This document shows positions 5,081 through 44,060 of a DNA stretch of 45,453 bases, one piece after another. The notes below the pieces were generated by a model that saw only the letters and a program-made list of their open reading frames with translations, was not told where the DNA came from and made no database searches. The position numbers were made by a program, and so were the translations under genes. Source of the stretch: Escherichia phage vB_EcoS_SD276; the sequence record OR911938.1, one strand, 5' to 3'. Each line of letters opens with the position of its first letter. The first letter of the stretch is position 1.

Positions 5081-5845
5081 TTAGCGCGGAATGCCGCAAA
5101 TCTCGTTGAGTGTTTTCACATCCAGCGCCACCGCCGTGGATTTTGGCTTGTCCGGGTATGGGATGAATTGCTCAACTTCAGGCCATGCCTTAATCAGCTT
5201 CTTGTCAGTGTTGTGCAGGTCCAGCACACCGGTAACGGTGAGTTTGAACGCATCATACTTCGCGCGCAACTCGCGACGGGCCTTGTCGTTGCGGTCCAGG
5301 CGCTTACAGAAGTCATGGTCCGCCGGGTAATCAACGCGACCGCGTGGGAGATATATCGGCAGCGCTTTCCCATCCTCGTCCACTTCGCACACTGACGCGA
5401 GCATAACTGTCTCGAACCCCGGAACGATATCGCCGAGATCAGGCGCGAGCTTATTCATATATTTCTCTTCCCAGTATCCGCGATGTACGCGGTATTGGCG
5501 ACCGTCACCGCTCAAGGACAAGGTGCGAACATTTCCGCCTGCGTTGATTTCGAAAGTGGCGTCGTAAACGCTGCCGATACCTTTCGGGCGGTCGGTGTTA
5601 TAACTATACGTCGCCTTGTTGGTGTATACGCTGACGCCGTACATCTGCGACTGGTCATCGCGGATTGACAGGATATGCTCGCGTAGCGAGGCGAATGTGC
5701 GAATGCCGTCCGGCATACAGTCCAGCGTGATTGCGTACGCCAGGTCGCGAGAGTCCATCATGATTGTTTTGGCTACGGTAGCGATTTCGTGGTCGCGCAG
5801 GATGTTAGCCAGGATCTGATTTTTAATGTCTTTTGTCAGTCTCAT
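5081..5845 (-). CDS. hypothetical protein (254 aa), antisense cassette gene 2
   Basis: Long ORF on opposite strand to flanking late genes, RBS GAGGACACAAAA-ATG, ends at bidirectional terminator 5057-5079. Confidence 0.6.
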   Translation of the reverse strand: MRLTKDIKNQILANILRDHEIATVAKTIMMDSRDLAYAITLDCMPDGIRTFASLREHILSIRDDQSQMYGVSVYTNKATYSYNTDRPKGIGSVYDATFEINAGGNVRTLSLSGDGRQYRVHRGYWEEKYMNKLAPDLGDIVPGFETVMLASVCEVDEDGKALPIYLPRGRVDYPADHDFCKRLDRNDKARRELRAKYDAFKLTVTGVLDLHNTDKKLIKAWPEVEQFIPYPDKPKSTAVALDVKTLNEICGIPR

Positions 5846-6199: not shown

Positions 6200-6234
6200 T
6201 TTGTCTTCCTTCATATCTCTGTTGGTGTGCAACC

Positions 6235-6264
6235 AATATACCGCAACCAACATTCGCAATGCAA
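6235..6264 (-). promoter_or_regulatory. sigma70-like promoter for antisense cassette (TTGCAT-N18-TATATT)
   Basis: Hexamers read on minus strand; followed by GGTTGCACACCAAC and RBS. Confidence 0.5.
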
Positions 6265-22312: not shown

Positions 22313-22340
22313 GTATTACACCGCTCAACCAGGATTGCAA
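22313..22340 (-). promoter_or_regulatory. promoter-like element upstream of lipoprotein gene (TTGCAA-N16-TAATAC)
   Basis: Hexamers on minus strand with TTGGTTGCAA motif. Confidence 0.35.
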
Positions 22341-22360
22341 CCAATTAAGAGGATTTAGCT

Positions 22361-24787
22361 ATGGCAGCGGGTACGCTATCCGTAACGAACAACAGCAAGG
22401 CGGTAGTAGGGGTTGGCACAACGTTTACCGCGTTTAAAGCAGGCGACTTTTTAACGCTGGTGGTAGGACAAGTCCCCTACACCGTAGCGATCGCGTCCAT
22501 TGAAAGCGCAACCGCGCTCACGCTGGTGTTACCGTTCGACGGCCCAACGGCAACCGGCCTTGCGTGGGACGGCGTTAAACGCGATACCATGTCACTGGCA
22601 ACGATGGGCGTTACCGTACAGGCACAGAAAGCGTTGCGATTGATGATCGCAGATGAAAACAACTGGCGCGCTATCTTCGGCGAAGAAGAAGAAATCTCGG
22701 TCACGCTACCGAACGGTCAAGTGGTGCAGGGTATGTCGTGGGGCTACCTGTCAAAACTGCTTAAAGACGTAGATCCTGTTGAATTGCAGGCTATCGCGGA
22801 CCGGACCATCACGGCTAAAAACCAGGCGCAAGGATTCCGTAACGAGGCGGAAGGCTTCAAGAACACCGCGAATACCGCGAAAGATGCCGCAGTAGCTGCG
22901 AAGACCGCGGCTGAAACGGCGCAGGGTAAAGCCGAGACAGCTAAAACGGCAGCAGAGTCCGCGAAGACTGCCGCCGAAACAGCTAAATCGCAGGCCGTAA
23001 CCGCTAAAGACCAGGCCAAAGGATTTCGCGACGAGGCTGAAGGCTTCGCAAACAGCGCGGACGCGTCAAAGAAAGTGCCGTATGCTGGCGTGGATATTGG
23101 AACGCCTGCTGGCATTAGGGATATGCTCAAGACGCTACGTGATACGGTCAAAGGTGGCTTTTGGCGGGTAACGAACTCGACGCAGTTCCCGGCTGGCGAA
23201 CTGACCCCCGGTAGCTATGGGCCTGGTGTGTGTGGTGGGGCGGGCGATACTTTCTTTGCAATCAACGTTGACTATCAAACCTCTCGCGTCAAAGTTTACG
23301 CTGGAAACAATGCCGCGATTAACGGCTCTTCGGGGAATGTGAGCGCCGTCGAACTAGCAAGGCTGGGTGCTAACGGGGACGTGGCGTTAGCGGACGGCGG
23401 GACCGGTGCATCGAACGACCAGGACGCGAGAAAAAACCTTCAGGCAATGCACGAGCGACAGGCATCGTTGGGTACTGAAGATCTTAACGAATTGAAAGGG
23501 GATAAGGCTGGATTTTACTTTCAGTCCATGTCGGCGAACGCCACCCCTGAGCGTAACTATCCAGTCGCCACGGCTGGTTGCTTGCTGGTGCAGCGTACTG
23601 GTGCTAACGTCGCGACAAGCTGCGTGCAGACTTTCACATCATACTTAGACGGGCGTCGGTGGATGCGCTGGATTAGCAACGGGGCAACTGGCACCTGGTC
23701 GCAGTGGTACGAACTGTATAACGCGGGGTCGTCGCCGACTTTTTCTGGGGTGGTCGCTGGCTCTTCGGTGGAGGCTAGAGGGAACGAAAAGCGCGCAGTT
23801 CTTCGCACCTGGCCTAATGATGTATCTGTTTCCAACTCGGCATCTAATAAATTCTTGCAATTAAGGGACAATGGTGAGCTTGCATATGACAACAAGCTGA
23901 TCGCGTATAATGGCCTTGTAGCAAGCGGCTCATTTTATATGCAAGTTCCGAGCATTAAGGTTAATACCGCTAATGGTGGCTTCCGTATCGACGGAACAAC
24001 GGCAACAAACGACCAACCACTGCACGTAACAGGCTACAACTCCGCAGGTACGCGTCTTTGGTTTTTAGGGAAGGACACTGGGGCGAACGCGCTATTCCTG
24101 AACGATGTTACATCGTCTAAGGTTGATCTGATCACAGACGGCGTTGTGCTTGGTACAAAGAATTTTGCGGGCAAGGCATACGTCCAGGCCGCAAGTTTGG
24201 AGATCGACCGTCCGAGCGGAAAGTATTTCAAAATGATGAACAACGGCGACTCGTCGCACCCCGCAACCTTCAAATTGTGGGGTAACGGGTCAGATCGCCC
24301 GGCGGTTATTGAGTTTGGGTTTGACGATGGTCCGGGGTGGCTTTTTTACGCCCAGTATAATAGCAACGGCACGCGTCAGATGAACGTTAACGGAACGGTA
24401 AACTGTACGACGGTAAACCAGTCTTCTGACCGCGAGTTGAAGGATAACATCAAGCCGATCGAGAACGCCCGCGCGGGCCTTGCTAAGATGGGTGGTTATA
24501 CCTACACCCTGAAAAAAGACGGTATGCCGTACGCCGGGGTGATTGCACAGGAAGTAATGGACGTTGTGCCGGAAGCCGTGAGCACGTTTGAGGACTACGA
24601 ATACCTTGCGGGGCCAACGCAAGACGGCGAGGAACTGGTAGGGCGTCAGCGCTTCTTCCAGGTGGATTATGGTGCTATTGCTGCATACGCGGTGCAAGTG
24701 TGTAAAGAGCAGGAAGAGGAACTGGTGTCTTTGCGTAGCGAACTGGAGGAATTGAAAGCTGCCGTAGCGGCACTGACTAAAGCATAA
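22361..24787 (+). CDS. lateral (L-shaped-type) tail fibre with C-terminal intramolecular chaperone (peptidase S74-like) domain
   Basis: 808 aa; internal Ala/Lys/Thr repeats (AKTAAETAK...); C-terminal region with conserved S...K motif and terminal coiled coil EEELVSLRSELEELKAAVAAL typical of autoproteolytic chaperone domains. Confidence 0.7.
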   Translation: MAAGTLSVTNNSKAVVGVGTTFTAFKAGDFLTLVVGQVPYTVAIASIESATALTLVLPFDGPTATGLAWDGVKRDTMSLATMGVTVQAQKALRLMIADENNWRAIFGEEEEISVTLPNGQVVQGMSWGYLSKLLKDVDPVELQAIADRTITAKNQAQGFRNEAEGFKNTANTAKDAAVAAKTAAETAQGKAETAKTAAESAKTAAETAKSQAVTAKDQAKGFRDEAEGFANSADASKKVPYAGVDIGTPAGIRDMLKTLRDTVKGGFWRVTNSTQFPAGELTPGSYGPGVCGGAGDTFFAINVDYQTSRVKVYAGNNAAINGSSGNVSAVELARLGANGDVALADGGTGASNDQDARKNLQAMHERQASLGTEDLNELKGDKAGFYFQSMSANATPERNYPVATAGCLLVQRTGANVATSCVQTFTSYLDGRRWMRWISNGATGTWSQWYELYNAGSSPTFSGVVAGSSVEARGNEKRAVLRTWPNDVSVSNSASNKFLQLRDNGELAYDNKLIAYNGLVASGSFYMQVPSIKVNTANGGFRIDGTTATNDQPLHVTGYNSAGTRLWFLGKDTGANALFLNDVTSSKVDLITDGVVLGTKNFAGKAYVQAASLEIDRPSGKYFKMMNNGDSSHPATFKLWGNGSDRPAVIEFGFDDGPGWLFYAQYNSNGTRQMNVNGTVNCTTVNQSSDRELKDNIKPIENARAGLAKMGGYTYTLKKDGMPYAGVIAQEVMDVVPEAVSTFEDYEYLAGPTQDGEELVGRQRFFQVDYGAIAAYAVQVCKEQEEELVSLRSELEELKAAVAALTKA

Positions 24788-24793
24788 CGAAAA

Positions 24794-24815
24794 GGGGCCG
24801 TATGGCCCCTTTTTT
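24794..24815. terminator. bidirectional intrinsic terminator between lateral fibre and leftward operon
   Basis: GGGGCC-GTAT-GGCCCC flanked by A-run and T-run. Confidence 0.7.
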
Positions 24816-25390
24816 CAGTTTGCGTTTTCCCAGTCCATTTTGCGCCTCACCAGCGGGCTTTCGTAGTATTCCTTACCTTCGACTTCCACTAAAGGCCAAT
24901 CGTTCACGATCACGTATGGCTCTGCTATATCCTCAATCACACCGTGCGCGCTATGCTGCCCGAACGACACACCGACCAGAATAACACCGGCAACGCGACG
25001 GGTCAGATACTCGCGAGCGCAACGGGCCTCTACCAGTCCGCGACGTATGCCGCTGGTGGCTTTAACCTCGTATGTCCATACGGCATCGATCGTATGTTCG
25101 CGGAAGTCAGGGCCGGACTTAACCTTGCGCTTGCCTACCATGATAATATCGCCGCGGTCAATGGTATTAGCGCTAAACAGGCCGGTACGCATTAGCAAAC
25201 CTTGCGGGATACAGCTACGCCCGCCCGCCTGCCCTTCGAGGTACATGCCTGCAAACATTTCGCCCAGCACACCGACGAGTCTGCTTTGCTTGCACGCGTC
25301 GGACTTTAAGCGCCACTGTTCAAACTCGATGCTTGCAATCATTGCCGCCAGGTGGAATTGTTTACCGGTTATTTCATATTCGCCGTACAT
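24815..25390 (-). CDS. hypothetical protein, possible PD-(D/E)xK-type nuclease fold
   Basis: 191 aa; motif D-x5-E-V-K (DAVWTYEVK); last gene of the leftward operon, ends at bidirectional terminator. Confidence 0.4.
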   Translation of the reverse strand: MYGEYEITGKQFHLAAMIASIEFEQWRLKSDACKQSRLVGVLGEMFAGMYLEGQAGGRSCIPQGLLMRTGLFSANTIDRGDIIMVGKRKVKSGPDFREHTIDAVWTYEVKATSGIRRGLVEARCAREYLTRRVAGVILVGVSFGQHSAHGVIEDIAEPYVIVNDWPLVEVEGKEYYESPLVRRKMDWENAN

Positions 25391-25432
25391 TATGAATCCC
25401 TCATTGATGCGGGCCGAAGCCCGCGATTAGAA

Positions 25433-25987
25433 TTATTTCAGTGCACCAGTCACCAGTGTTTTTTCCATGTTACGGAAATCTTCCTGCGTCATGCAGATTT
25501 TCGATCCGTCTTCGCCGGTGAGCACGACCATAGGCTGGACGTCCTGGGCTACAACTCCAAAATTGGCGGCCCTAACAGTCTTGCCGAACGAGGCCACCGT
25601 GTCCTCTGCAACGCGAATTGCGCTGTTATACGCATTAATCTCGCCGTCCAGGCGCACTGACAGGCCTTTGAGGCTATCGTATTGCGCTGCCGTTGTATCG
25701 ATCTGAATCTCGTCATGCACGGTCATGTAAGACTCGCCCAGCAGGGCGGCATACGCCACCAGATCCACGATGTTATCTTCCTGGTGCTTACGGTGCTGGC
25801 GCACCAGCTTCAGGCAGATCAGGAAAGTCCAGGCTTCTTGCTCGGTAAGGTCGCGCCCGGTAAGCGCGTTAAACACGGCGGCGACCTGTTTAGCGCTGCG
25901 TTCTTCTTTCGCGTTGTCATAGCCGTTTTCTTTTCCGCGCTGTTCCATAGTGGTGGCGGCGTTTTTGCAGTATTCGTATGCTTTCAC
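25433..25987 (-). CDS. hypothetical protein (184 aa; GTG start)
   Basis: ORF preceded by sigma70-like promoter (26034-26063) and leader hairpin. Confidence 0.5.
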   Translation of the reverse strand: MKAYEYCKNAATTMEQRGKENGYDNAKEERSAKQVAAVFNALTGRDLTEQEAWTFLICLKLVRQHRKHQEDNIVDLVAYAALLGESYMTVHDEIQIDTTAAQYDSLKGLSVRLDGEINAYNSAIRVAEDTVASFGKTVRAANFGVVAQDVQPMVVLTGEDGSKICMTQEDFRNMEKTLVTGALK

Positions 25988-26033
25988 AGTATTACCCTTT
26001 TAGCGAGGGGGCGGTATTGCCCCCGACACGTTT

Positions 26034-26063
26034 ACTATAGTGCAACCAACCTATTGGTTGCAA
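26034..26063 (-). promoter_or_regulatory. sigma70-like promoter (TTGCAA-N18-TATAGT)
   Basis: Hexamers on minus strand, GGTTGC boxes in spacer, followed by leader hairpin. Confidence 0.5.
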
Positions 26064-26521
26064 GTGAATTTTGCAACGTTTATTGCGTAAATTTTCGGGA
26101 CCAAATCACCACACGCCCGACGAATCGCCGCGATGTTCTTCTCGCAATCTTCAATGATGACCAGTTCCGATACGTCCGCGTAACAGACCATTTTGAACAC
26201 GGCGCACGCCTTAAACTCAGGCGGCGGGGTGTCGTCCAGCATGTGGCGCATAAACAACCGGCCTACTGGGAAGACCTCCAATTGCTCCGCGGTGGTGTCC
26301 CAACATTCTCGCTGCCGGTTGGTCAGATACGCGATCTCGAAGCCTTGCTCTTTATACATGCGCAACAACGGCAGCATATCCATGTTCAGGTCTTCGCGGA
26401 CGTGTGCTTTGTGCCACTTCGCCCAAAAGGTGGATTTAGTTTTTATGCCCGGCACCAGATCGGCACGCGCATCGCTTGAACCGTTAATAACGCCATCCAA
26501 ATCGCAAATCAATAATTTCAT
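26051..26521 (-). CDS. HAD-superfamily hydrolase (phosphatase-like)
   Basis: N-terminal HAD motif I LICDLDGVI and downstream acidic motif IIEDC. Confidence 0.55.
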   Translation of the reverse strand: MKLLICDLDGVINGSSDARADLVPGIKTKSTFWAKWHKAHVREDLNMDMLPLLRMYKEQGFEIAYLTNRQRECWDTTAEQLEVFPVGRLFMRHMLDDTPPPEFKACAVFKMVCYADVSELVIIEDCEKNIAAIRRACGDLVPKIYAINVAKFTCNQ

Positions 26522-26742
26522 TTTAAACTCTCAATAAGGGTGTAACGGGCGCTTCGCGCAGTAAAGGAGTTGCACACGAAATGGCAACGCTGAGTCATGA
26601 CAAGCCAACCGGTGAGGTCAAGGCCCATGATGTATTCGTGGCGAGACGCGCGCACCACACGATTGCGTCGCGGGTCAATACCGTAGTCTTTTTGCATTTG
26701 GTCTACTACCGCGGGGTCGCGGTCAACGATTAAGATATTCAA
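26518..26742 (-). CDS. hypothetical protein (74 aa)
   Basis: Overlapping start/stop with flanking genes in operon. Confidence 0.35.
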   Translation of the reverse strand: MNILIVDRDPAVVDQMQKDYGIDPRRNRVVRASRHEYIMGLDLTGWLVMTQRCHFVCNSFTARSARYTLIESLK

Positions 26743-27208
26743 GGAGTTCTCCTTCGCTCATTATTTCAATTTGTGCGCCGCCGAAGGGTGGCGCTTCGTC
26801 GAAGATTATCAATTGCTGGCACTTGTTATTGCTAGGCCCGACTTCGCCGGTGACGGCGTGTATAAATCTAATCCGCCAGTCCAGAAGAATTATCAGGTTT
26901 GCAGTCTTCCTGGCCAGCTTCGCCCACTTCGTCGACGTGTCCTGATTCAGTAGCATGACCGTCCGGCGTCCGTGCGCTGCGCACTTTACCCACGGCAGCG
27001 GATCGGAGTACGGCGGATTGCACCACTTCCACCCTTTCAACTCGGACCAGTCCACATCAAGCGCGCTGTGTTCTGCAGTGAAGTAACGCGGTAGCAGGTG
27101 GTTTGCATCGCTTGCCGCCATATCGTAACGGAATCGGTACTTCCGGCGAAGCGGTTTAAATAAAGCTGGTGGCGTGCGCCAGCTATCTTTTTGCTCACTC
27201 TTCAGCAT
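26723..27208 (-). CDS. DNA N6-adenine (or N4-cytosine) methyltransferase, phage Dam-like
   Basis: Catalytic tetrapeptide NPPY within WCNPPYSD; small size typical of phage Dam-family enzymes. Confidence 0.65.
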   Translation of the reverse strand: MLKSEQKDSWRTPPALFKPLRRKYRFRYDMAASDANHLLPRYFTAEHSALDVDWSELKGWKWCNPPYSDPLPWVKCAAHGRRTVMLLNQDTSTKWAKLARKTANLIILLDWRIRFIHAVTGEVGPSNNKCQQLIIFDEAPPFGGAQIEIMSEGELLEYLNR

Positions 27209-27659
27209 GGTCGGGATCTATCGCATACAGGGCAATCTTGTCACCTTTTTTCAGGATTCGCTGCAATCGCTGCGTCTCCGACACACCTAAAGGGCGCGCG
27301 TCCGGGTAGAAGTTGCCGTTTGTGGGGTTGCGCCACGCCATAAGCACCAGATCTTTCCGGTCGATCTTAGACTGGCGGCCCTTCGGTCGCACGTACTCCT
27401 CGGCCCGTTTGCAATGCTCGCGCAGACCTTCGGCGGTGACGCGGTTTAGTGCAACGCTGGTGGTGTATCCGGTGCGCTGCATAATCCCCATCAGTTCGAA
27501 AAGCAGTTCGAAGCGCTCCTCTAACTCTATGCGACGCTTTTCTTCCGTTTCATAGCTTAACAGGTAGGTATCCGCCAGCGCGTTCGCACGTTCGGCCTGT
27601 TCGCGGGCTTCGAGGCATTGCGCGGCCCAGTAATTTTTCTCTTCTTGTAAAATTTTCAT
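27195..27659 (-). CDS. hypothetical protein (154 aa)
   Basis: ORF downstream of promoter 27706-27734 (minus) and leader hairpin; start chosen at MKILQEE. Confidence 0.45.
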   Translation of the reverse strand: MKILQEEKNYWAAQCLEAREQAERANALADTYLLSYETEEKRRIELEERFELLFELMGIMQRTGYTTSVALNRVTAEGLREHCKRAEEYVRPKGRQSKIDRKDLVLMAWRNPTNGNFYPDARPLGVSETQRLQRILKKGDKIALYAIDPDHAEE

Positions 27660-27705
27660 CGTGTTGTCTCCAGGTATTAAAAAGGGCGTCCAACCGGACA
27701 CCCTA

Positions 27706-27734
27706 AATATAATGCAACCAATATGATTATGCAA
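27706..27734 (-). promoter_or_regulatory. sigma70-like promoter (TTGCAT-N17-TATATT)
   Basis: Hexamers on minus strand, TTGGTTGCAT repeated twice. Confidence 0.55.
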
Positions 27735-27739
27735 CCAAT

Positions 27740-28063
27740 TTACGCATAAAAGTTAGGATCGCGCGCTACGTCTACCAGATACAGGTTACTAATGCGGTTG
27801 CCGTAATGGCCTGGCGTGCGCTGACGGCACACAACGGCGAAGCCTGGGGGGATTGTATTGCCGGTCGCGATAATCCACGCCACGCGTGCGCCAGACAGCG
27901 TCTTGCCGTTGCATTCGATACGAGTACCGCCATCGGCAGTATTGAGGTTGCCAATCTTGCAGCCTGTTGACTTAAGGCGGATAACGCCGGTCTTGCTGTC
28001 GTAGGAAAAAAGCTGATTGGTCATTGCCACTGAAAAGTCGATGGCGTCGAATGCAGTATTCAT
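27740..28063 (-). CDS. HNH-like homing endonuclease-like protein (degenerate)
   Basis: 107 aa; overall pattern of small phage HNH/NUMOD4-like proteins (Gly-rich beta hairpin region, C-terminal H/N residues) but catalytic motif not clean. Confidence 0.35.
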   Translation of the reverse strand: MNTAFDAIDFSVAMTNQLFSYDSKTGVIRLKSTGCKIGNLNTADGGTRIECNGKTLSGARVAWIIATGNTIPPGFAVVCRQRTPGHYGNRISNLYLVDVARDPNFYA

Positions 28064-28755
28064 TTTAAATTTTCCTCGTTAACCGCTATCGCGAAGCCGC
28101 GCGGGGTGAGCGACCTGATTAATTTGGTGCGGGCAGATTTGCCTCCGAGGCGACTATACTGCTTCGAGTAACCTTTTTCAACGAAAACAGGTTTCTTCTC
28201 TGGCATACGGAAGCCGTTGCCGGTCCATAAGCAGGTCAACTTCGGATATGAATCGCGGGCGTTGATGTATTCAGGGAATAACGGGTGTACGTCATCCTCT
28301 GGCAAATAGCCTCCATACTCCCACGGGTCAAACGAGTGGTCCGGTTTACGCCATTGAGTGGAAAGCACACTGCGCGGATTCTCAATCATATACGGCACTT
28401 CGAAGAAATCACCCAGGTAAGCGGCGATCTTCGCGGTGCGCACCGCCTTAAGCTGGAAGGCAGGGTCTTTTGCACGCTTACGCGGGAACGCTGGCGCACC
28501 ACTAACCGCCAGATCCGTACACGGCGGGAATGCATAGATGATATCCGGCGTGCCGAAATCACCATTCATCGCGCGGTCCACGAAGTCCAGATCGATAAAC
28601 TCATTACGATATCGGATACCGCGCCCATAGATCCGGTAGTCCAGGTACGACCCGTGATCGGCTTCGGAGTAGTTGAAGCAATAACACTTATGCCCCATCT
28701 CGGCAGCACGCTCAATCATCAAGCCGCTGCCGTCAAACAATGACCAAATTATCAT
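28060..28755 (-). CDS. compact DNA cytosine-C5 methyltransferase-like protein
   Basis: Motif I SLFDGSG (FxGxG), motif IV FPPC (PC), motif VI ENP (ENV-like), QWRK after it; only 231 aa so variable/target-recognition region is very short. Confidence 0.5.
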   Translation of the reverse strand: MIIWSLFDGSGLMIERAAEMGHKCYCFNYSEADHGSYLDYRIYGRGIRYRNEFIDLDFVDRAMNGDFGTPDIIYAFPPCTDLAVSGAPAFPRKRAKDPAFQLKAVRTAKIAAYLGDFFEVPYMIENPRSVLSTQWRKPDHSFDPWEYGGYLPEDDVHPLFPEYINARDSYPKLTCLWTGNGFRMPEKKPVFVEKGYSKQYSRLGGKSARTKLIRSLTPRGFAIAVNEENLK

Positions 28756-30646: not shown

Positions 30647-30675
30647 ACTATACCGCTATGCGACCAATTCAGCAA
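30647..30675 (-). promoter_or_regulatory. sigma70-like promoter (TTGCTG-N17-TATAGT)
   Basis: Hexamers on minus strand upstream of zinc-ribbon gene. Confidence 0.45.
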
Positions 30676-30934
30676 CCAATAAATCACAGTCGGCAATGTT
30701 GTCTATAACGCGAACGTCAGCGCCGCGGCGGGCCATCCGCTCGTGTTCTCGTACCTGGTGCGGCTTAGGTTTGCCGCCTGGGCGCTTCACTTCGACGAAC
30801 ACTATTTTGCCGTTGATGATGATAATCAGATCGGGCGCACCCGAGCGCCCCTCCCATGCCACTTTGCGGCAGAATCCGCCGACGGCTTTCACCCGTCCCA
30901 TCAAGTGACTTTGAATCTTGCCTTCTGGTGTCAT
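30656..30934 (-). CDS. VRR-NUC domain nuclease
   Basis: Motif PDLIIIINGKIVFVEVKRPGGKPKPHQ (D...E-V-K...Q) typical of VRR-NUC; overlaps polymerase stop. Confidence 0.55.
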   Translation of the reverse strand: MTPEGKIQSHLMGRVKAVGGFCRKVAWEGRSGAPDLIIIINGKIVFVEVKRPGGKPKPHQVREHERMARRGADVRVIDNIADCDLLVAELVA

Positions 30935-34229: not shown

Positions 34230-34294
34230 TTTCCAATTCCTCATTTTCACATGTATCGGGGTTATTGTGAGCCACCCCGTTCGGCTTGGTTGCT

Positions 34295-34323
34295 AATCTA
34301 CTTGGTTGCGCCTAAGCGGTCAA
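34295..34323 (-). promoter_or_regulatory. sigma70-like promoter (TTGACC-N17-TAGATT)
   Basis: Hexamers on minus strand upstream of SSB-like gene, GCAACCAAG boxes. Confidence 0.5.
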
Positions 34324-37208: not shown

Positions 37209-37237
37209 AATATTAGATTGGTTGCAGAAGGGAGTCA
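37209..37237 (-). promoter_or_regulatory. leftward early promoter (TTGACT-N17-TAATAT)
   Basis: Hexamers on minus strand in the divergent control region, GCAACCAATC box in spacer. Confidence 0.55.
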
Positions 37238-40017: not shown

Positions 40018-40127
40018 AATTTGCGCGCATTGGTTGCCGATATGGGAATTCCCATATCGCTAAAAGACTAAAATTTGCGCGCATTGGTTGCCATTTTGAG
40101 TGTTTTTAGCTGGTCGCATTGGTTGCC
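40016..40127. repeat. GCATTGGTTGCC iteron-like direct repeats (3 copies) with inverted copy at 40398-40409
   Basis: AAAATTTGCGCGCATTGGTTGCC at 40016-40038 and 40070-40092, GCATTGGTTGCC at 40116-40127; flanks 20-bp perfect palindrome GATATGGGAATTCCCATATC (40039-40058). Confidence 0.6.
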
Positions 40128-40338: not shown

Positions 40339-40493
40339 AAATCCGGGATTGCAAAATACACGGCAGCACATTGGAAATCGCGGTCGTCGACGAACTAGGC
40401 AACCAATGCGAGATGCGGAATGGTGGGTGGAAAATGCAGTTTGCATTTGCAACGGATAGCGATCGACTTTTTCATACGCGTGATTAATATTGG

Positions 40494-40522
40494 TTGCATT
40501 CGTGCCCGCACCCTGCTAGATT
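40494..40522 (+). promoter_or_regulatory. sigma70-like promoter (TTGCAT-N17-TAGATT)
   Basis: Followed by GGTTGCACACCAAC, the same motif that follows the -10 of promoter 6235-6264. Confidence 0.5.
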
Positions 40523-40550
40523 GGTTGCACACCAACATGAGGACCGAACA

Positions 40551-43859: not shown

Positions 43860-43889
43860 TTGACTTGCAACCAACATAGACGCCATACT
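43860..43889 (+). promoter_or_regulatory. possible promoter (TTGACT-N18-CATACT)
   Basis: Weak -10; lies after terminator 43831-43857 and before phosphoesterase gene. Confidence 0.3.
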
Positions 43890-44060
43890 GCGACCAACCA
43901 AGAAGAGGAGTAATCAAGATGGCACGTAAAGACGTTTGGGTATTGGCAATCTGGACCGCCGCGGCTTTTATCGGCATGGTTATTTGCGAATTGAGATAGC
44001 CCGCCGCCATATGGACCGTGGTATATTGTCCACGGTCCAATAATCAGGAAGTAATTAAAT

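Follow-up and report, generated by a model that had tools for sequence, protein, structure and literature searches.

A conserved gene pair at the distal end of the Dhillonvirus early gene cluster encodes a putative PD-(D/E)xK-type nuclease and a DUF6378 protein behind a likely internal promoter

Dhillonviruses are common coliphages that are used in phage-therapy engineering and form part of the BASEL reference collection. The T4 proteins DenA and DenB are endonucleases that degrade host DNA. The Tmn defence system is inhibited by ORF35 of the Dhillonvirus SM_S22, and Dhillonviruses can escape from it through a point mutation (K-to-E) in nmad5 (PMC11846954). Here, we describe two adjacent genes of Escherichia phage vB_EcoS_SD276, a Dhillonvirus (HK578-like coliphage), which encode proteins of 184 and 191 amino acids (aa). 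The window analysed is a stretch of 45,453 nucleotides (nt) from record OR911938.1, and the coordinates of its features are listed in Table 1. The gene pair is positioned at the junction of the rightward structural module and the leftward early module, in which the order of genes is DNA polymerase, helicase, methyltransferases, Dam, a HAD-type phosphatase, the 184-aa gene, and the 191-aa gene. The rightward tail-fibre gene, which ends at 24787, is convergent with the pair. An earlier note made from this sequence had proposed both open reading frames, the 184-aa one with a GTG start, and both are borne out.

The best overall explanation of the locus, to which we give a little better than an even chance, is that the two genes are distal early-operon cistrons, transcribed by read-through and from an internal promoter, which encode a putative PD-(D/E)xK nuclease and a DUF6378 protein. 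The parts of it that concern the activity of the promoter and of the nuclease, the function of the hairpins, and a biological role are a reading of sequences and predicted structures. The pair would form the last two cistrons of the leftward early gene cluster of Dhillonviruses, which comprises DNA replication and modification genes. Transcription would reach the pair by two routes, by read-through from upstream and from the internal sigma-70-type promoter at 26063-26034, which contains the 9-mer TTGGTTGCA in its spacer. Transcripts from the internal promoter would start 2-3 nt ahead of a conserved GC stem-loop, which would protect their 5′ end. A stem-loop with a UUCG tetraloop would separate the cistrons, and transcription would stop at a terminator common to the pair and the tail-fibre gene. 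The 191-aa product would be a metal-dependent DNA endonuclease of the PD-(D/E)xK fold that uses residues E44, D81, E108, and K110 and acts on DNA during infection, either in the processing of phage DNA or in the breakdown of host DNA. The 184-aa product would consist of a four-helix DUF6378 domain, in which acidic and basic residues are conserved, and a small C-terminal module, the two being joined by a helical spacer that is dispensable.

The assignment of the 191-aa protein is based on its conserved residues and predicted fold. Residues G40, E44, G64, R68, D81, E108, K110, Y128, I161, and W165 are invariant in 18 family members with identities down to 23%. In the AlphaFold2 (AF2) model of the protein (pLDDT 83.5, pTM 0.81), E44 belongs to helix 34-54, D81 is positioned at the start of strand 82-85, and E108 and K110 are part of strand 104-112, which is followed by helix 122-130 and strand 135-144. 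The predicted alpha-beta-beta-beta-alpha-beta order is that of the PD-(D/E)xK core, and the model has the catalytic motif of that fold: an aspartate at the start of core strand 2, E-x-K in strand 3, and an acidic residue in core helix 1. A variable loop modelled with low confidence (residues 86-103) occupies the position of the beta2-beta3 hairpin. The small size of the protein and the methyltransferase genes in its vicinity add to the likeness. In contrast to PD-(D/E)xK members, the 191-aa protein has an additional N-terminal strand and helix and a C-terminal beta/alpha extension, and its family is tiny and restricted to phages. The earlier note had recognised a nuclease-like D-x5-E-V-K motif in this protein. 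The motif is literally present (D102...E108-V-K110), but D102 is invariant only in close relatives and is lost in distant ones; the nuclease-like character itself is plausible in the PD-(D/E)xK form, with D81 in place of D102 as the relevant aspartate.

The Foldseek comparison of the 191-aa model to the PDB has HincII in ranks 1-11, and AspBHI and DpnI are also present among the hits. The comparison to viral models gave 13 matches with E < 0.001, all of which are uncharacterised phage proteins of 140-250 aa. T4 DenA and DenB resemble the proposed enzyme in being small, phage-encoded, early-expressed nucleases of a phage that modifies its own DNA. However, they are without shown homology to the 191-aa protein, and the only connection is a weak, non-significant BFVD match annotated 'DNA endonuclease IV' (E = 0.7).

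Several results speak against the nuclease assignment. The AF2 model was built on seven sequences only, and none of its matches to solved structures is significant (best Foldseek E = 0.07, TM ~0.3). The family profile has no match in PDB sequences, Pfam, or NCBIfam, and thus none to a curated nuclease profile; an hhalign comparison to the VRR-NUC nuclease of the same phage gave a probability of 0.2. Furthermore, D...ExK-like motifs occur in non-catalytic proteins too. The sole PHROG match of the protein is phrog_10558, which has no function assigned, and Pfam scans of the 18 family members returned scattered single matches only. Profile searches of PDB sequences with both families found nothing meaningful, only spectrin SH3 and eIF1A at E > 0.3, and no homology of the pair to core replication or recombination proteins was detected. 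Taking the two sides together, we consider it fairly probable that the 191-aa protein works like a PD-(D/E)xK nuclease, while its membership in the superfamily is not demonstrated.

The 191-aa family is small. It is represented by seven clusters among 5.8 billion proteins, and a profile search of 1.84 billion cluster representatives gave 15 hits; a GTDB scan found no homologue in genomes of bacterial species. At ≥60% identity, the gene is found in 157 records, and a further 42, mainly from T1-like Klebsiella phages, contain it at approximately 30%. Each of seven independent phage backgrounds has the gene at the far end of its early operon or next to it, in most cases as the very last gene; in the background L018 two small genes follow it. 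The next feature beyond the gene is a convergent tail gene or a lysis cassette. In six of the seven contexts the gene follows those for DNA methyltransferases, typically located 3-5 genes upstream (Dam; MT-A70 with a C5-like open reading frame; N6_N4_Mtase; two methyltransferases in Klebsiella phages), and in two a small helix-turn-helix (HTH) gene abuts it. An activity directed at DNA would agree with this context, although the modules may be related by descent. Two partial matches cover only the C-terminal part of the 191-aa protein: a 68-aa metagenomic protein (P0131) and an unannotated 37-aa fragment, 84% identical to the C-terminus, at 54408-54518, at the end of the record of the lambdoid phage mEp021 (MH706966.1). 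The latter is probably a recombination relic.

The gene contexts raise the possibility of a modification-aware nuclease. The 191-aa enzyme could cut DNA that lacks the modifications of the phage, whether Dam-type, introduced by the second methyltransferase, or dependent on Nmad5, and so degrade the DNA of the host or of competitor phages and spare the phage genome, in the manner of T4 DenA and DenB or of a phage-borne restriction enzyme with its methyltransferases encoded upstream. The recurrence of methyltransferase genes speaks for this reading, in which the abutting HTH genes would correspond to the controller proteins of restriction-modification systems. The best solved-structure hits listed above are restriction enzymes of type II or of the modification-dependent kind, the promoter type of the pair also drives the Nmad5 and Dam units, and the BFVD match points in the same direction. 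However, none of the structural hits reaches significance, phage early operons often contain methyltransferase genes, and shared ancestry may make the association of these genes with the 191-aa family non-independent. Since E. coli itself is Dam+, GATC methylation cannot separate host from phage, and no bacterial homologue in a restriction-modification context was found. We regard the discrimination of modified DNA as unlikely. A nuclease acting on DNA in either phage DNA processing or host DNA breakdown is the preferred reading of the 191-aa protein.

Residues 16-85 of the 184-aa protein match DUF6378 (Pfam PF19905) with 37.8 bits, above the gathering cut-off of 27.1, and 24 of 24 aligned relatives match the same family. 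Residues G18, D24, E29, R30, S31, W53, L59, K60, R63, D71, D75, Y79, L82, and E85 are invariant in 24 diverse members. Most of the conserved residues are charged (D24, E29, R30, K60, R63, D71, D75, and E85), and the SD276 protein retains the charged residues of the family (DUF6378; PHROG 9871, 474, and 1167). Most relatives are stand-alone proteins of approximately 94 aa that are encoded on phage-sized contigs, often by the last gene of an early operon. In contrast, the 184-aa protein has, in addition to the domain, an indel-prone helical linker and a C-terminal module of approximately 35 residues. The linker is deleted, replaced, or extended among phages that are otherwise more than 90% identical, resulting in protein lengths of 130-199 aa, whereas the N-terminal domain and the last ~35 residues on either side of it are conserved. 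The AF2 model, which has low confidence, contains four helices, a long helix spanning residues 100-141, and a beta-hairpin followed by a helix. GTG is the first possible start codon of the reading frame, and because GTG and ATG alternate at this position among relatives, preceded by an AAGGG Shine-Dalgarno (SD) sequence and followed by the conserved AAAGCATACGAA, the start at GTG is supported.

The AF2 model of the DUF6378 protein is poor (pLDDT 62.7), and DUF6378 has no detectable relative of known function in profile searches of PDB sequences or in Pfam and NCBIfam scans, two results that count against the overall explanation. A Foldseek search of the PDB with the same model returned noise only, and the literature search found DUF6378 mentioned by name only. 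The label 'phosphofructokinase', carried by PHROG 474 and one GenBank record, was rejected, as no kinase family was found in Pfam or NCBIfam and the PDB searches did not support it. Judging from the gene context, a nucleotide- or nucleic-acid-related role of the protein is only a guess. The domain may bear a likeness to the all-alpha NTP pyrophosphatases of the MazG type.

The proximity of the two genes could mean that the DUF6378 protein is a binding partner that controls the 191-aa nuclease, whether it inhibits, activates, or targets the enzyme, with the intercistronic hairpin setting the ratio of their expression. The genes remain adjacent in relatives with identities down to 55%, the hairpin is conserved, and the two genes overlap by 4 nt in the relative L013, which suggests translational coupling. 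However, the two families are separable. Members of phrog_10558 in L014-L022 lack a DUF6378 neighbour, and DUF6378 proteins of 94 aa end early operons without the nuclease. An obligate two-protein system was rejected because each family occurs without the other, and the same observation makes control of the nuclease by its neighbour quite improbable, the least likely of the alternatives considered here. The two proteins are preferably viewed as products of distal cistrons of one operon.

The internal promoter, also put forward in the earlier note, matches the sigma-70 consensus in 9 of 12 positions, and the spacing of its hexamers is within the 16-18 nt range. However, 11 sites of this 9/12 type are present in the 24-38 kb region, compared to 11.2 expected from shuffled sequences. 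The consensus scan alone is thus no evidence for a promoter, because the site frequency equals the shuffle expectation. Conservation provides a stronger argument. Sixteen distinct Dhillonvirus sequences share an unchanged -35 box and have either TATAGT or TATATT as their -10 box at a spacing of 17-18 nt, in contrast to dS values of 0.3-0.6 for the flanking genes relative to the window. Two paralogous promoters are present in the genome, one upstream of the genes for the 154-aa anti-Tmn homologue, Dam, a 74-aa protein, and the phosphatase, and the other upstream of a 104-aa gene and Nmad5. The 104-aa gene and Nmad5 form a leftward island within the rightward structural module. All three promoters contain the 9-mer TTGGTTGCR immediately before the -10 box, and an independent repeat finder joined 26022-26049 with 27694-27721 as a 28-nt direct repeat. 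Because of the conservation in 16 sequences, the two paralogues, and the enrichment of the 9-mer described below, the promoter is likely functional. The literature search found no Dhillonvirus transcriptome or transcription start site data, which weighs on the other side.

The -35 box of the promoter is located inside the 3′ end of the phosphatase gene, in its last codons, and overlaps its stop region. No credible terminator was found between 27683 and 26063, and none lies between the HAD phosphatase gene and the pair; read-through from the promoter at 27734-27706 is therefore expected. The promoter of the pair is thus internal to the operon and does not define an isolated unit. The 'independently expressed unit' of the earlier note does not hold, as is also indicated by an additional small gene directly upstream of the DUF6378 gene in the relatives L010 and L011 (55-57% identity) and by the gene overlap in L013. 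A terminator-like hairpin with a U-tract (27683-27704, - strand, z = -3.3) directly follows the -10 box at 27711-27706 of the upstream promoter. Since the inferred start site of that promoter falls within the 5′ arm of the hairpin, the hairpin could stop read-through from upstream and pass locally initiated transcripts, and thus function as a coupled terminator-promoter.

The 9-mer TTGGTTGCA recurs throughout the window. Allowing at most one mismatch, it has 25 hits, ten of which are exact, compared to 11.9 ± 3.5 in shuffled sequences. The sites are almost exclusively intergenic and mostly form pairs with a spacing of 12-31 nt. At the promoter of the gene pair, two copies form the inverted arrangement TGCAACCAA-TAGG-TTGGTTGCA, which spans the -35 box and spacer and may serve as an operator or promoter element. 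Phages of the slur06 type have the right-hand copy flipped from the inverted to the direct orientation and retain both hexamers. This suggests that the 9-mer acts as one functional entity, possibly by binding a protein. The 9-mer could be either the operator of a regulator encoded by the phage or a promoter element specific to the phage.

The start site of the internal promoter is placed near 26027 because the -10 box is at 26039-26034, and the leader stem-loop proposed in the earlier note is found just downstream. Across the 16 sequences, 96.6% of the cells of the stem are paired, compared to 50-73% in slid controls. The loop varies freely, and one G-C pair of the stem is replaced by A-U in two of the 16 sequences, with a G-U intermediate in one sequence. 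However, the covariation is limited to this single pair and the observed score is attained in 29 of 500 shuffles, and the free energy of the hairpin is unexceptional for its composition (z = -1.3). A terminator function of the leader hairpin was ruled out by the absence of a U-tract, and a role as 5′ mRNA stabiliser is probable.

The hairpin between the cistrons is near-invariant even in L004, L010, and L011, relatives with 55-77% identity whose flanks diverge, and displays no covariation. It is absent from L013, in which the two genes overlap. The retention of its sequence where the flanks have diverged argues for a function, for example, as a 3′ end barrier or a processing site. The pair ends, as the earlier note had stated, at a bidirectional terminator. 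It is formed by a 10-bp stem followed by UUUUCGUU on the - strand and UUUUUU on the + strand, so that a GC-rich stem with a U-tract is present on both strands. The calculated folding energies are -20.7 and -22.0 kcal/mol, with z = -4.5 for the - strand and -4.9 for the + strand. The terminator is kept in eight relatives and is labelled as such in the WFI record. A search of Rfam over 24600-28300 gave no family at E < 0.5.

The promoter paralogues connect the pair to the genes that have been implicated in the interaction with Tmn. The anti-Tmn and Nmad5 units are encoded on the same strand of the same genome and have the same promoter architecture (TTGCAN, a 17-18-nt spacer ending in TTGGTTGCR, and TATAKT), and in the anti-Tmn unit, as in the pair, the promoter is followed by a GC hairpin. 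In contrast, the anti-Tmn and Nmad5 proteins are unrelated to those of the pair. CDS0035 of SM_S22, which is 80% identical to the product of 27195-27659 and is mis-annotated as 'DNA ligase' in GenBank, appears to be the ORF35 anti-Tmn protein, based on its number and position next to Dam. Homologues differ in activity, and the anti-Tmn function of the SD276 protein is not assured. The shared promoter type is the sole and indirect pointer to a possible host-interaction role of the pair.

It is conceivable, and about as doubtful as the discrimination of modified DNA, that one or both proteins counter host immunity, for example, by inhibition, by acting as a decoy, or by the nucleolytic destruction of a signalling nucleotide, and are expressed together with other counter-defence units. 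The promoter-leader module is a paralogue of those in front of the anti-Tmn homologue and of Nmad5, a mutation of which allows escape from Tmn (PMC11846954). The indel hot-spot of the 184-aa protein among near-identical phages resembles the outcome of diversifying pressure, and the end of an operon would suit such genes. However, the escape from Tmn was mapped to ORF35 and nmad5, and not to the DUF6378 and 191-aa genes (PMC11846954). A scan for PADLOC and anti-defence families found none that is convincing, only a similarity to the TmtA C-terminus (E = 0.0065) in two of the 18 members of the 191-aa family, which is no more than a lead. The genus-wide distribution of the pair and the strong purifying selection on its conserved domains are unlike those of typical sporadic anti-defence genes.

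The distribution and selection also bear on the 'accessory' character that the earlier note had assigned to the pair. The 1.5-kb region of the pair matches 155-161 phage records, nearly all from Escherichia and Shigella Dhillonviruses (HK578, SO-1, JL1, BASEL phages, and others), and is covered to ≥80% in 147 records. The 157 records that contain the 191-aa gene compare to 164 with the capsid gene at ≥80% identity, which corresponds to the level of Dhillonvirus. In comparison with 20 relatives, the 191-aa gene has a dN/dS ratio of 0.03-0.10, and residues 2-95 of the 184-aa protein, the DUF6378 region, have one of 0.02-0.2. Both genes are under strong purifying selection. The pair is a genus-core feature that lacks the patchy presence of a variable, moron-like cassette, and is therefore not a sporadic accessory cassette. 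The distal cistrons of the early operon, with a putative nuclease and a DUF6378 protein as products, are the description of the pair that we retain.

Table 1. Positions of the gene pair, its regulatory elements, and related features in the vB_EcoS_SD276 window.
Feature	Position	Strand	Description
191-aa coding sequence	24815-25390	-	ATG start, SD GAGGG 25402-25398; phrog_10558; putative PD-(D/E)xK-type nuclease
Candidate catalytic segment	25061-25150	-	D81 25150-25148, E108-V-K110 25069-25061; D102 inside
Further invariant acid E44	25261-25259	-	helix 34-54
184-aa coding sequence	25433-25987	-	GTG start, SD AAGGG 25999-25995; DUF6378 domain, variable helical linker, conserved C-terminal module
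DUF6378 domain	25733-25942	-	residues 16-85; predicted four helices over residues 3-89
Indel-prone linker	25538-25705	-	residues ~95-150; predicted long helix 100-141
Sigma-70-like internal promoter	26034-26063	-	TTGCAA 26063-26058, 18-nt spacer, TATAGT 26039-26034
Inverted 9-mer pair	26041-26062	.	TGCAACCAA-TAGG-TTGGTTGCA; candidate operator/promoter element
Leader stem-loop	26007-26024	-	GGGGGC-AAUACC-GCCCCC; 2-3 nt after inferred transcription start ~26027; centroid fold
Intercistronic stem-loop	25409-25424	-	GCGGGC-UUCG-GCCCGC; between 184-aa stop codon and 191-aa SD
Bidirectional intrinsic terminator	24790-24813	both	common to pair and convergent tail-fibre gene
HAD-superfamily phosphatase gene	26051-26521	-	upstream of pair; stop codon 26053-26051
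Anti-Tmn homologue	27195-27659	-	154 aa, 80% identical to SM_S22 CDS0035
Promoter paralogue	27734-27706	-	TTGCAT-17-TATATT; upstream of 154-aa gene (anti-Tmn homologue), Dam, 74-aa gene, phosphatase
Promoter paralogue	6264-6235	-	TTGCAT-18-TATATT; upstream of 104-aa gene and Nmad5
Nmad5	5081-5845	-	PF18757, E = 1.2e-58; DNA-modification-associated gene
9-mer sites	6228-6250, 22336-22344, 26041-26062, 27713-27738, 30659-30679, 34286-34310, 37218-37226, 40030-40127, 40490-40529, 43866-43897		exact and one-mismatch variants

The annotation of the neighbourhood varies among records. The phosphatase upstream of the pair has sub-threshold Pfam hits only (Acid_phosphat_B, 23.8 bits versus 27; HAD_PNKP, E = 0.12), and is labelled nucleotidase, phosphatase, or polynucleotide kinase (PHROG 415). 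In the Dhillonvirus-like L010 and in the unrelated L014 and L017, the 191-aa family is likewise found together with a phosphatase that has weak Pfam hits to the HAD family. The 191-aa gene itself is uncalled in some GenBank records, including those of EK99P-1 (L007, NC_024783.1, locus 1610-1852) and ZCEC12, which contain a spurious open reading frame on the opposite strand, labelled 'olfactory receptor', in its place.

The pair comprises a narrowly distributed, putative new member of the restriction-endonuclease-like kind, whose nuclease character is plausible, and a DUF6378 protein. For specialists, this holds little surprise, as small PD-(D/E)xK-like reading frames and DUF proteins are frequent at the ends of phage operons. 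A bolder proposal, which we hold to be slightly less probable than the discrimination of modified DNA by itself, is that the 191-aa protein founds an unrecognised, phage-restricted branch of restriction-endonuclease-like proteins that tells modified from unmodified DNA and is co-regulated with the DNA-modification and anti-Tmn units through a TTGGTTGCA operator. If true, a virulent siphovirus would possess a 'self-marking plus non-self-cutting' regulon. The most useful by-product of the analysis is the recurring 9-mer promoter element. For one of these two uncharacterised, genus-wide genes, both of which are under strong purifying selection, a nuclease assignment would provide a concrete, testable activity. 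The shared promoter architecture of the Nmad5, anti-Tmn/Dam, and gene pair units suggests a co-regulated set of genes for DNA identity and host defence, and such a three-unit set could inform gene deletion experiments and rational phage design.

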